A DNA stretch of 64,000 nucleotides. Origin: Escherichia coli. Its GTDB lineage: Bacteria; Pseudomonadota; Gammaproteobacteria; Enterobacterales; Enterobacteriaceae. Each line of letters begins with the position of its first letter. The first letter of the stretch is position 1. Location: assembly GCF_022846255.1 (NCBI RefSeq), contig NZ_AP025682.1; one strand, given 5' to 3'. The notes under the pieces were generated by a model, which did not search any database, was not told the DNA's origin, and saw only the letters and a list, made by a program, of their open reading frames with translations. The translations under genes were made by a program, and so were the position numbers. Below, one piece after another: positions 58,166 to 61,421 of this stretch.

Positions 58166-58360
58166 TTACAGCAACTGGTGAGGGCTGGCATAAGTTGCCG
58201 GTGTTTCGGTAGAGTCACGGTCATCCACCACGCGGAGTGAATAACCGTTTTCAGCGGCCTTATTAATCAGTTCAGTGATATTAACACCATCAATGTCAAC
58301 GACAATGTGCCCCATATCCAGCGCCTGTACGTTAACGCTGTCGGCTTCCAGTGTCATCAT
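58166..58360 (-). CDS. yeeW: CP4-44-type small protein YeeW
   Basis: 64 aa (MMTLEADSVNVQALDMGH...); its ATG overlaps the stop of the cbtA reading frame. Confidence 0.75.
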   Translation of the reverse strand: MMTLEADSVNVQALDMGHIVVDIDGVNITELINKAAENGYSLRVVDDRDSTETPATYASPHQLL

Positions 58361-58730
58361 TTCGCCTCCGGATACTTACCCAGGGTAATGTTATTTACCG
58401 TTCTGTAATTGTCGCGGGTCATCAGGCCGGTCGCCCTGCGAGCCCGGAGGATATCGATGCTGTTTATTAACTGAGAGCGGGTACAGGCGCTGAATCCCGG
58501 CTGGTCGGTAGCACCAGCGCGTATTTTTCCACGAGAAAGTTCACCGCATCACACAGTGAAATGCCTGCCTCAATATGCTGCTCAATCACACGTTCATCGG
58601 CAAAAGGTGTGTCATTCTGTGTGAGGCCATAGTGCTGGTCCAGCAGTCGGGACAGCAGTATCTGCCAGATTTCAACAGGAGACGGGCGAGAACTGGCCGC
58701 CTGCCCGGGTAATACAGGTAATGTTTTCAT
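58357..58730 (-). pseudogene. cbtA: CbtA (YeeV) toxin gene, frameshifted
   Basis: The first 71 codons ([35 protein letters not shown]...LVEKYALV) are followed by a frame change near 58510..58512; the -1 frame continues [51 protein letters not shown] and ends on the TGA overlapping the yeeW ATG, while the current frame stops at 58467. Confidence 0.75.
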
Positions 58731-58818
58731 ACTGAAGATTTTCCTGATATGCAGATATAAAAATGGAAAAGTGGCGTGGTGAAAACACCAGGCCGTAGCA
58801 GAAGGCTATTCTGGAGAG

Positions 58819-59187
58819 TTAATTTTTCATTTCGGGCGTCGGATAAACAGCCAGATAAACGTAACCACAACTGCTGAGGGTATCGGCTTTGCAGGTCAGC
58901 CCTTTTGCATACAGCGTGACGGTATGCTGATGGCGGGGATTCAGTTCACCGCTGGTGAGCATGAGCTCCAGTTGTTTCATCAGCAGCGGAAAGGCCTGGT
59001 CCAGGTGGTACGCATCTGCATCGCTGAACAGGCCTCTGATACCGGCGCGGTCGGCAAGGTAATGCAACCGGTTACCCTCCTGCACCAGACGTGCCCCGAA
59101 ACAGGGCGTCACGGTGCAGGGCAGCCCCCACCAGGGGCGGTCGTGATTGTCGTCGGGAAGTGTTGTCCCGGGGAGTGTGTCTGACAC
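58819..59187 (-). CDS. cbeA: CbeA (YeeU) antitoxin
   Basis: 122 aa (MSDTLPGTTLPDDNHDRPWWGLPCTVTPCFGARLVQEG...). Confidence 0.85.
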   Translation of the reverse strand: MSDTLPGTTLPDDNHDRPWWGLPCTVTPCFGARLVQEGNRLHYLADRAGIRGLFSDADAYHLDQAFPLLMKQLELMLTSGELNPRHQHTVTLYAKGLTCKADTLSSCGYVYLAVYPTPEMKN

Positions 59188-59262
59188 GATAAAATCCTCA
59201 CAGAAAATCGGTTAAGAATGGTCCGGTAGTGGCGATAATTCTGCTCATCAGAATGCCCTGAC

Positions 59263-59484
59263 TCAGTTCAGGGTGACACTCATCAGGCGGACATACGGGC
59301 CAAAACTGTCCTTACGGCGTTCAGCAAACACGGCAAGAACGCCGGGAATATCCTGCACTTCACGACCGGTATACGCTTCAGCGCTGCCGTGCCAGCGGTA
59401 CTTACCGGTACAGAACGGAAAAAGACGGGATGCAGGATGCTGTTGGTGAATACGCATGGCTTCACCACGGGTGATAATTTTCAT
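59263..59484 (-). CDS. yeeT: DUF987-family protein YeeT
   Basis: 73 aa (MKIITRGEAMRIHQQHP...). Confidence 0.8.
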   Translation of the reverse strand: MKIITRGEAMRIHQQHPASRLFPFCTGKYRWHGSAEAYTGREVQDIPGVLAVFAERRKDSFGPYVRLMSVTLN

Positions 59485-59546
59485 GATGGGATACCTCTGA
59501 AGACAGAAGATAAAAGTGAAAACAAGTGTGATGTAGTTGTGACGGG

Positions 59547-60038
59547 TTAAAGCAGACCGTGTTCCGCAAAGGAGAAAACCTGGTTGCCACCGACTATCAG
59601 ATGGTCCGGCACCCGGATATCCACCAGGGCCAGTGCCTGTACCAGACGTTCGGTGATAAGCCGGTCTGCCTTACTGGGTGTGACTTCACCGGACGGGTGA
59701 TTGTGTGCCAGCACCACGGCAGCGGCATTGTGATACAGGGCGCGTTTAATCACTTCCCGGGGATGGACTTCCGTGCGGTTGATGGTGCCGGTGAAGAGGG
59801 TTTCACCGGCAATCAGCTGATTCTGGTTGTTCAGATACAGCACCCGGAATTCTTCACGCTCCAGTCCCGCCATGTTCAGAATCAGCCATTCCCGTGCCGC
59901 ACGGGTGGAGGTGAAGGGCACGCCGGGTTCATGAAGATGGCGGTCCAGGGTTTTCAGGGCCCGCAGAATGAGGCTGCGCTCGCCGGGCGTCATCTCTCCT
60001 GGCAGAAAGGAAAGTTGTTGCATTGTGCTTCTCTCCAT
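59547..60038 (-). CDS. yeeS: RadC-like JAB-domain protein (UPF0758)
   Basis: JAMM motif HNHPSGEVTPSKAD; the start may be the internal ATG (MQQLSFL...). Confidence 0.85.
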   Translation of the reverse strand: MERSTMQQLSFLPGEMTPGERSLILRALKTLDRHLHEPGVPFTSTRAAREWLILNMAGLEREEFRVLYLNNQNQLIAGETLFTGTINRTEVHPREVIKRALYHNAAAVVLAHNHPSGEVTPSKADRLITERLVQALALVDIRVPDHLIVGGNQVFSFAEHGLL

Positions 60039-60518
60039 TCAGTCGATGATGCGCATAATGGCGCTGCATTCCGGATGCTGCAGGGCGTAATCCCGCAGCC
60101 GGTAATAATGGACCGTCATGGCATAACACTCTGTACGACAGGCATGATGACTGTACGTCATCAGACAGGCAGCAATGCCGGCGGCTTCCGGGCTCATTTC
60201 AGCGCGGTTACCGTTCATGACATTGAACAGTACCCATGTTTCGTCATCATCGTCATCCGGTTCGGGTACCATAAATGCCCCGCCGTTGTTCAGGGTGTAC
60301 AGATTCCAGATACCACCGCAGTAGTCTTCGCACAGACGGTCCATCCAGCCGAAGACACGGGGCTCCAGGGTCACCCACTGTGGAATGAGGCCAAAATGCT
60401 GCGGCCAGAAGCTGATGCGCTGTTCATCAGGGACGAGGCTGGCAACCAACTGAGGCGGATTATTCTCTGGTGTTGTAGCTGAATAAATTGTGGGGGTATT
60501 CTGAGAAACGGTTTTCAT
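60039..60518 (-). CDS. Antirestriction protein (ArdB/KlcA family)
   Basis: 159 aa; WPQHFGLIPQWVTLEPRVFGWMDRLCEDYCGGIWNLYTLNNGGAFM pattern typical of the family. Confidence 0.8.
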   Translation of the reverse strand: MKTVSQNTPTIYSATTPENNPPQLVASLVPDEQRISFWPQHFGLIPQWVTLEPRVFGWMDRLCEDYCGGIWNLYTLNNGGAFMVPEPDDDDDETWVLFNVMNGNRAEMSPEAAGIAACLMTYSHHACRTECYAMTVHYYRLRDYALQHPECSAIMRIID

Positions 60519-60599
60519 GAGATAACTCCTTAAATAACAAATAAATGTGTGTTTTTCAGGAACGAAAGCTGAATGATTCCCTCACTCAGGGAAACGGCA

Positions 60600-61421
60600 T
60601 CAGCGCAGGCTCTCCAGCATCGTTTCTGCCATCACCCACAATGCGCGATTGAGCTTAATGTCGGTATCAATGCTGTGAATGGCCCGGGTATGGATACGTT
60701 TTCCTCTGGCACTGCGACCGGAAATCCCGCCTTTCAGCATATTCTCCTGGATGGTCTGATATGCGCTCCACAGGTCCTTACCGTAATCCTCCCGGCGTCG
60801 CGGCGTCAGAATGTCGGCGGTGGTGACGGGCTGATGTTCGTCACCATAACGGTAAGTCAGTGCCGCCTGTGCCAGCGCCTGGCGTGCCGGTGGCGGCAGG
60901 ACCAGCGACTGCATGGCATCACGCTTCTCCTCTATCCGGTCAAACACGCCCACCACCTCGTAAGCCCCTTCGATAACTTTCTCCACTACATTTCCCCGGT
61001 GTGGAACACGCACTTCCCCCAGAGACTGGCCACAGACGCACCCGTTCTGGCAGACGAACCTGAAGTAACCCGGCAGCATCTGGTAGCTGGAGGTACCGTC
61101 ATGAGAGTTGAGCAGAATAATTTCAGGGACATGTTCTCCGTTTATCTCTCCGGCCCGCCGCAGACGCAGCATGTGTTTTGTGTATCCCCGGCGGCCCGGG
61201 TCGCGCACACGGGTCTGGCAGGCGAAGAACGGCTGAAAGCCTTCCCGCTGCAGATTTTCCAGGACGGTAATGGTGGGAATGTACGCATACCGTTCACTGC
61301 GGGAGATGTGCCGGTCTTCCCCAAAAATACTGGGTACATGGCGTATCAGTTCTTCATGTGTCAGCGGACGGTCACGGCGTATCTGGTTTGCAGCATAACC
61401 AAAACGACTGGCTAATCGCAT
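60600..61421 (-). CDS. DUF932-family protein (YafZ-like)
   Basis: 273 aa; MRLASRFG...SRSERYAYIPTI...GFQPFFACQTRVRD...YTKHMLRLRR...PEIILLNSHDGTSSYQM...FRFVCQNG pattern. Confidence 0.8.
   Translation of the reverse strand: MRLASRFGYAANQIRRDRPLTHEELIRHVPSIFGEDRHISRSERYAYIPTITVLENLQREGFQPFFACQTRVRDPGRRGYTKHMLRLRRAGEINGEHVPEIILLNSHDGTSSYQMLPGYFRFVCQNGCVCGQSLGEVRVPHRGNVVEKVIEGAYEVVGVFDRIEEKRDAMQSLVLPPPARQALAQAALTYRYGDEHQPVTTADILTPRRREDYGKDLWSAYQTIQENMLKGGISGRSARGKRIHTRAIHSIDTDIKLNRALWVMAETMLESLR

Follow-up and report, generated by a model that had tools for sequence, protein, structure and literature searches.

A seven-gene island array beside tmaR in Escherichia coli is very probably a conserved CP4-44-type terminal module with old, inherited decay

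We analysed a 64,000-nt stretch of the Escherichia coli chromosome (contig NZ_AP025682.1; hereafter the window), which is oriented in reverse relative to K-12, and focused on an array of seven minus-strand genes at 58166–61421, within a genomic island. This array is very probably a conserved CP4-44-type (P4-like) terminal module: a fixed remnant in the standard gene order, whose decay is old and inherited. An earlier note, written from the sequence alone, had also recognised a conserved CP4-type backbone. It went on to read the difference from K-12, a flanking insertion sequence (IS) fragment and a frameshifted toxin gene as signs of active decay and recombination in the island. The observations held up, and it is the reading placed on them that we revise here.

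The module itself is already known; E. coli islands carry it as a textbook component, in multiple copies. The end module has been described (PMC6480617, PMC5371832), most strains carry 4–6 copies of a block made up of antirestriction, DNA-repair and conserved hypothetical genes (PMC6480617), and YafZ, KlcA, YeeS, YeeT, YeeU and YeeV are listed in the pheU, pheV and selC islands (PMC6174562).

Results

The seven genes and their order

The seven co-oriented open reading frames (ORFs) lie precisely where they were first noted, in the order DUF932-ArdB-YeeS-YeeT-CbeA-CbtA-YeeW. This is the terminal order of CP4-type islands, and we find the same order in CFT073, 2014C-3061 and M505. A Pfam scan of ten proteins from the region matched every expected family once and confirmed the family of each array gene. 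NCBIfam recognised RadC only, plus weak matches to patatin and DUF932, and Pfam was needed to confirm the families. All genome counts given here come from 5,426 complete RefSeq E. coli genomes. For a 6.75-kb query made of the array and the adjoining patatin cassette, the median number of places per genome is 4. Together with the order shared with CFT073 and 2014C-3061, this bears out the description of the array as a conserved backbone.

Most of the proteins are close to known relatives. YeeW, which retains the N-terminal domain of a family whose full-length members have ~162 aa in paralogous islands, is identical to K-12 YeeW. CbeA differs from its K-12 counterpart by one aa and matches the YeeU structure in PDB (2H28) over its full length (E 5e-84), and YeeT is identical to the CFT073 paralog. 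For yeeS, the Prokaryotic Genome Annotation Pipeline (PGAP) places the start at 60023 (158 aa) and the longest ORF starts at 60038 (163 aa). The protein scores above cutoff against TIGR00608 (149 bits), matches PDB 2QLC (E 1e-25), is assigned to the PF04002 domain family and carries HNHPSGEVTPSKAD, which has the H-x-H-P-x6-S-x2-D metal-binding pattern. By analogy, YeeS is probably a JAMM-type metalloprotease-like protein.

The ArdB protein belongs to the ArdB/KlcA family (PF03230) and has a close characterised relative: it matches PDB 2WJ9 over its full length (residues 1–159, E 1.2e-100) and more distantly KlcA (2KMG, E 2e-20). It also matches the anti-restriction family phrog_10132 (1.3e-62). 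We take 2WJ9 to be the CFT073 ArdB of PMC2836571; a text search of that paper did not find the PDB code. The DUF932 protein matches phrog_12094 (2.5e-132), and a search against PDB found no solved-structure relative of it.

A fixed site between tmaR and cobU

The window runs from the his operon, marked by a His leader at 46596–46719 in an Rfam scan, through sbcB, dacD, sbmC, yeeA and tmaR into the island, which continues beyond position 64000 according to the ORFs and the annotation of strain SMS-3-5. The flanks are collinear with K-12 and SMS-3-5, which places the island at the position of CP4-44 (tmaR/yoeF to cobU). The cobU side was observed in SMS-3-5 only, as the window ends within the island. 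To judge from these alignments, the array is orthologous to the CP4-44 right end, abutting a truncated pduV (yoeF) beside tmaR. The seven genes would thus form the terminal module at a fixed site between this pduV remnant and cobU.

The boundary of the island can be placed inside pduV, at ~57551 (query position 652), where homology to island-free genomes stops; yoeF is the 3' remnant of that gene. In island-free EC23-1020, a full pduV-pduU-pduT and the genes onward directly adjoin tmaR (compared stretch 9470–18652). The tmaR-pduV-pduU-pduT arrangement is retained in only 644 of the 5,426 genomes, and the same pduV truncation point is found in ~88% of them. In genomes other than those 644, the island took the place of most of the ancestral pdu operon. 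At the opposite island end, SMS-3-5 retains a cobalamin-biosynthesis gene fragment beside cobU.

Two further remnants lie between yoeF and the array (Table 1). The flanking IS fragment of the earlier note indeed matches IS66-family tnpC; it overlaps a pseudogene that PGAP calls "transposase domain-containing protein, incomplete" in SMS-3-5, and occupies the position of the K-12 yoeD pseudogene. Next to it is a piece of a DUF957 gene. Because intact paralogous islands run on through DUF5983-DUF957-DUF4942 (CFT073, 2014C-3061), the distal end of the window copy is truncated; DUF957 and DUF4942 were presumably cut off at the IS66 fragment.

The earlier note suggested searching for an integrase beyond the window. 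In SMS-3-5, the closest relative, the variable region from tmaR to cobU is a ~77 kb IS-riddled mosaic with no annotated integrase. A P4-type integrase with att sites was therefore not found, as judged on the SMS-3-5 annotation, since the window stops at 64000. The CP4-44 of K-12 is likewise reported to lack an integrase and to be incapable of excision (PMC5371832). The window copy would be a fixed remnant rather than a mobile element.

The arrangement is widespread and K-12 carries a deletion

At least 80% of the tmaR-to-DUF932 stretch is found in a single place in 3,104 of the 5,426 genomes (57%). A paralogous copy without the locus flank would cover only ~72% of this query, and these 3,104 are therefore copies at the CP4-44 locus. 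When the query is extended from tmaR to the patatin gene, 2,204 genomes (41%) reach the same coverage, and O157:H7, O145 and O2:H6 strains as well as SMS-3-5 are among the full-length matches; on inspection, 55989 shows this gene order too. The earlier note had named one finding that would speak against its view, namely that this exact arrangement, patatin cassette included, is the common ancestral one of most E. coli. By share of genomes, this is so for the seven-gene array (57%), and with the cassette (41%) the share falls just short of "most".

In K-12, flu-yeeR directly precedes yeeS, as the earlier note correctly stated. From tmaR onward the window and K-12 share 98.5% identity, until homology ends at position 60000, 24 nt into yeeS. 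Strain M505 explains this break: it is 99.6–99.7% identical to K-12 at the locus and carries agn43-yeeR (2,517 nt, full-length)-irmA-DUF905-DUF932-ardB-yeeS. When the two are aligned directly, M505 locus positions 14802–18157 have no counterpart in K-12: a clean deletion of 3,356 bp begins within yeeR and ends 24 nt into yeeS, taking out the 3' part of yeeR, irmA, DUF905, DUF932 and ardB along with the first 24 nt of yeeS. This agrees with the published description of K-12 as having a truncated yeeR and lacking irmA, aec70 and aec71 (PMC6480617).

A 51-mer probe centred on the yeeR/yeeS junction of K-12 detects this junction in 360 of the genomes (6.6%), and the carriers listed are mainly K-12 laboratory strains (MG1655, DH10B, DH5a, C600, J53). 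A 30-nt partial match of the probe falls within a gene annotated as DUF932; the K-12/M505 alignment has a single clean deletion. K-12 would have lost DUF932 and ardB through this deletion. Judged by alignment and frequency, the window arrangement is the most frequent configuration identified, and K-12 is the exception through deletion.

Points against the reading, and a mosaic patch

Several points weigh against reading the array as a fixed, conserved module. The shares of 57% and 41% rest on a coverage of at least 80% as a proxy for the same arrangement at the same locus, one that tolerates IS insertions, and come from a sample heavily biased to O157:H7, ST131 and laboratory K-12, which gives prevalence rather than ancestral state. 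Every role of the array genes is read from homologues. A scan for sigma-70 promoters returned 5 sites, where 5.1 are expected, which is like shuffled sequence, and none could be assigned to the array. Lastly, part of the array is a strain-specific mosaic (Table 1) for which we found no full-length donor: megablast of the 5,426 genomes with 901-, 511- and 96-nt queries gave no exact match, the best matches being 96.9–97.2% identical. An exact-protein look-up of the window YeeS returned three metagenomic contigs, whose DNA is only 92–97% identical.

Outside this patch, the window and SMS-3-5 are collinear over 26.7 kb with one single-nucleotide polymorphism (SNP), so that the differences between the two are otherwise confined to it. 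The patch covers cbeA-yeeT-yeeS and leaves all ORFs intact; most of the substitutions are silent, and only 5 aa differ. In a binned comparison, window positions 59350–59850 have zero mismatches to the paralogous CFT073 module beside yicL, and 59194–59290 alternates between two paralog types with two unique sites. The best reading of this pattern is non-allelic gene conversion, in which a tract of 0.86 kb would have been imported from a paralogous island module.

It is also conceivable, as with a draft assembly, though we consider it unlikely, that the patch is an assembly artefact in which the consensus is a chimera among paralogous modules. The multiple copies of the array and cassette (median 4 places per genome), the lack of an exact match in any of the 5,426 genomes even over 96 nt, and the alternation with two unique sites at 59194–59290 are all what such a chimera could produce. 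However, the three ORFs are intact with most changes synonymous, and one uninterrupted stretch of 500 bp matches a real CFT073 paralog type perfectly. Moreover, the finished SMS-3-5 genome has a private patch in the same genes, and such mosaics therefore occur in nature. Its own substitutions in yeeT-yeeS (window equivalents 59067–68, 59323, 59374–77, 59404–59464 and 59652–59673) form a cluster (locus 21651–22649, equivalent to window 58900–59900) that is absent from K-12, M505, 7/2 and the window. The two patches suggest recurrent gene conversion in the yeeT-yeeS segment.

Decay is shared, not recent

The patch also bears on whether the gene content is unusual and recently rearranged in an island undergoing active decay and recombination, as the earlier note proposed. 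The arrangement does differ from that of K-12; the locus contains a frameshifted toxin gene, pieces of an IS and of a DUF957 gene, and a DUF905 stub; and the strain-specific patch exists. Yet the arrangement is the most frequent one both without and with the patatin cassette, and K-12 is a deletion derivative, so difference from K-12 is no evidence of an unusual or active island. The altered gene content thus turned out not to be a departure from the norm, with the array at the locus in 57% of the genomes and the K-12 junction in only 360.

Active decay fares no better. K-12 and thousands of other genomes have the pduV truncation and the IS66 and DUF957 fragments in common with the window, the cbtA deletion described below is also widely shared, and all decay marks except the patch occur in hundreds to thousands of genomes. 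This makes the decay an old, inherited one. Recombination was partly right, given an old cargo replacement (see below) and the patch, but the 0.86-kb patch is the only sign of it at the level of the strain. Recent rearrangement is already largely refuted, and we give it very little credence.

A frameshifted toxin gene beside an intact antitoxin gene

The toxin gene is frameshifted, as described earlier: relative to K-12 cbtA, one G is missing between 58511 and 58510, after codon 73. The premature stop at 58467–58469 leaves an 87-aa product (73 native and 14 out-of-frame residues) and removes the last 51 codons, and no intact 124-aa CbtA (PF06755) is encoded. PGAP calls the same allele "frameshifted" in SMS-3-5, 7/2 and 55989. 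Directly upstream, after an 88-nt spacer, CbeA (PF06154) is intact. Phase-variable slippage was considered as the cause of the frameshift and ruled out: the deletion lies in GGTGCGTACC, outside any repeat tract, and is therefore not phase variation.

We counted the allele with a 50-mer probe having 25 nt on each side of the deletion, on which the undeleted allele cannot seed a 28-nt megablast word. Exact copies of the deletion allele occur in 1,504 genomes, and the allele is present in 1,516 (28%), with O157:H7, O145 and 55989 among the sampled matches, and the intact allele is exact in 2,470. All three deletion carriers inspected (SMS-3-5, 7/2 and 55989) have the patatin-type island. The toxin would thus have been inactivated by an old 1-bp deletion common to 28% of complete genomes and, with its own toxin dead, CbeA would be left as an orphan antitoxin. 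That the module still works as an addiction (toxin-antitoxin) unit stabilising the island is scarcely credible: cbeA is intact and the 88-nt cbeA-cbtA spacing is as in K-12 (PMC5371832), but the last 51 cbtA codons are gone by frameshift and the allele is stably inherited in ~28% of genomes, suggesting that loss of the toxin is tolerated.

The cargo junction and the patatin cassette

Upstream of the DUF932 gene lies a stub of DUF905 (Table 1), and genomes without the patatin cassette lose homology to the window at ~61574. The cassette therefore replaced a cargo ending in DUF905, with the junction inside that gene. In the window copy, dynamin-RdcB-patatin would stand in the cargo slot in place of Ag43-YeeR-IrmA, and the 17-codon stub would mark an old replacement.

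Between the stub and DUF932 is a terminator-like hairpin that is very strongly conserved, in M505 and in the CFT073 paralog among others of the allelic and paralogous islands. It lies only ~50 nt upstream of the DUF932 start codon, with no recognisable sigma-70 promoter between the two. It may be a read-through terminator or another regulatory element. An Rfam search at the gathering threshold over 57–64 kb found nothing, which excludes curated radC/STAXI-type motifs and isrC.

The patatin gene, whose translation has intact GGGxxG, GASIG and DGG motifs, ends a co-oriented set that comprises a YeeP-like GTPase, a 798-aa dynamin-family protein, an RdcB-family protein, patatin and two small proteins (SMS-3-5 locus 24391–32326). 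The dynamin-RdcB pair presumably resembles the K-12 core pair yjdA/yjcZ. For the larger of the small proteins (62068–62859), the longest ORF (263 aa) is 36 codons longer at its upstream end than the 227-aa PGAP model. Two segments resembling signal peptides, MKLPVKLLMSLISLVSVIARA and MKRLHTLMLFLAVLFTGFNFNAEA, occur in it, and it may represent two fused or tandem small secreted proteins. The protein had no match in NCBIfam, PHROGs, PADLOC or Pfam.

The array and cassette also occur together beside tRNA-Ile in 2014C-3061, in a copy that is 92% identical and has kept its distal end intact; thus the combination is a recurrent island type and not a local accident. Between the GTPase and DUF905/DUF932, the slot holds Ag43-YeeR-IrmA in M505, a WYL protein and a hypothetical protein in CFT073, and dynamin-RdcB-patatin with two secreted proteins in the window. 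It is tempting to speculate that the slot is a cargo-exchange hotspot, that dynamin-RdcB-patatin acts in membrane-targeting defence or abortive infection, and that ArdB and the orphan CbeA are kept for anti-defence and anti-addiction, but we regard this as improbable. The earlier note had proposed running a defence predictor. PADLOC assigned no defence system to patatin, dynamin, RdcB, GTPase, DUF932, ArdB or YeeS; it gave weak partial matches for patatin (phospholipase effector, 4e-5), dynamin (LeoBC, 8.6e-5) and the GTPase (LeoBC, 4.7e-8), and nothing for the two small proteins or the RdcB-like protein.

Table 1. Coordinates of the module, its remnants and the adjoining cargo in the window
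Feature	Position	Strand	Evidence
yoeF, truncated pduV (EutP/PduV family) remnant	57369..57551	-	PGAP annotation of near-identical SMS-3-5
IS66-family tnpC fragment	57623..57782	.	95-99% matches to IS66-family transposase genes on many plasmids
DUF957 gene fragment, putative remnant of the module's truncated distal end	58040..58132	-	PGAP pseudogene in SMS-3-5, M505, 55989 and 7/2
yeeW, 64 aa, DUF5983 N-terminal domain alone	58166..58360	-	Pfam DUF5983_N 2.3e-29
cbtA pseudogene, 1-bp deletion	58357..58730	-	Alignment with K-12 and SMS-3-5; Pfam CbtA_toxin 1.2e-36 (N-terminal part)
cbeA (yeeU), type IV antitoxin, intact, 122 aa	58819..59187	-	Pfam CbeA_antitoxin 5.1e-53
Strain-specific mosaic patch, 37 differences from SMS-3-5 (36 substitutions and one 2-nt indel)	58966..59829	.	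Alignment
yeeT, DUF987, 73 aa	59263..59484	-	Pfam DUF987 6e-40
yeeS, RadC-like JAB/JAMM protein	59547..60038	-	Pfam RadC 4.1e-45
ardB, KlcA/ArdB-family antirestriction, 159 aa	60039..60518	-	Pfam Antirestrict (PF03230) 1.4e-36
DUF932 gene (YfjQ/YafZ family), 273 aa	60600..61421	-	Pfam DUF932 1.4e-51
Terminator-like hairpin, 13-bp stem then T-run	61471..61500	-	Terminator scan; fold -32.1 kcal/mol, z = -4.65
DUF905 remnant, last 17 codons and stop	61522..61574	-	Alignment with M505 and CFT073 DUF905-DUF932 intergenic regions
Adjacent cargo cassette, outside the seven-gene array	61642..63957, beyond 64000	-	ORFs, Pfam, SMS-3-5 PGAP
Hypothetical protein, signal-peptide-like N-terminus	61642-62052	-	ORF
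Hypothetical protein, signal-peptide-like N-terminus	62068-62751/62859	-	ORF
Patatin-like phospholipase	62887-63957	-	Pfam Patatin 8e-24

The chromosomal neighbourhood

A low-GC tract (30–39% GC, in surroundings mostly above 45%) spans window positions 28000–35000. A JUMPstart element lies just upstream of it (25205–25243) and a second one at 1039–1077. These features are consistent with an O-antigen cluster, and possibly also a second polysaccharide cluster, ~20–30 kb from the island end. The flanks of O-antigen clusters are an established recombination hotspot in E. coli, and the nearby hotspot would offer a simple route for alleles to spread between lineages. Elsewhere in the window, Rfam matches outside the array include an algC RNA motif (15550–15599, 78 bits) and the enterobacterial small RNA STnc240 (49017–49091, 68 bits).

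Discussion

Among known systems, the closest in arrangement is the locus in SMS-3-5, 55989 and 7/2, whose gene order is identical to that of the window down to the patatin cassette, the frameshifted cbtA and the DUF957 and transposase fragments. The CP4-44 of K-12 (yeeS-yeeT-cbeA-cbtA-yeeW-yoeD-yoeF) shares the chromosomal position, the IS66 fragment and the truncated pduV. It differs in its intact cbtA, its 3,356-bp deletion and its Ag43-YeeR cargo, where the window has dynamin-RdcB-patatin. Paralogous islands in CFT073 (beside yicL) and 2014C-3061 (beside tRNA-Ile), and CP4-6 and CP4-57 of K-12, follow the order GTPase...(DUF905)-DUF932-ArdB-RadC-DUF987-antitoxin-toxin-DUF5983 (PMC5371832). 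The CFT073 and 2014C-3061 paralogs differ from the window copy in that the toxin is intact, DUF957 and DUF4942 are kept and the chromosomal sites are others; DUF5983 is full-length in 2014C-3061 and annotated as incomplete in CFT073. The 2014C-3061 paralog also carries the dynamin-RdcB-patatin cassette.

What the module does can be approached through studied relatives of its genes. ArdB of CFT073, CP4-6 and CP4-57 relieves restriction-modification by each of the four type I families in vivo, by a mechanism that is indirect and unresolved (PMC2836571). CbtA-family toxins target FtsZ and MreB and are counteracted by CbeA-family antitoxins (PMC5371832, PMC5624674), and YafW and YfjZ each neutralise YkfI or YpjF (PMC5371832). 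CbeA, YfjZ and YagB, and likewise YfjX, an ArdB homologue, reach recipients by translocation through an F-like type IV secretion system (T4SS; PMC11288057). By analogy, the module would serve the establishment and maintenance of its element, first as protection on entry into a host and then as stabilisation. In the window copy, what remains of this would be at most ArdB, the orphan CbeA and the uncharacterised YeeS, YeeT, YeeW and DUF932 proteins.

The anti-defence leading regions of conjugative plasmids likewise encode ArdB/KlcA-type genes, for which early action during establishment has been proposed (PMC11541004; see PMC11288057 for the translocation of CbeA and YfjX). Unlike these regions, the window has no oriT, relaxase or T4SS, and no single-stranded-DNA promoter or known RNA motif was detected there. 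We therefore treat the likeness as a functional analogy only.

For the biology of these islands, the module points to several things. K-12 is a poor reference for this locus, where its CP4-44 is a 3.4-kb deletion derivative found mainly in laboratory strains. An old pseudogene allele such as the cbtA 1-bp deletion can occur in over a quarter of sequenced E. coli, and paralogous island modules would exchange short tracts, as the patch suggests. The uncharacterised dynamin-RdcB-patatin cassette, present at the locus in 41% of complete genomes, is the one lead that may be of wider interest.

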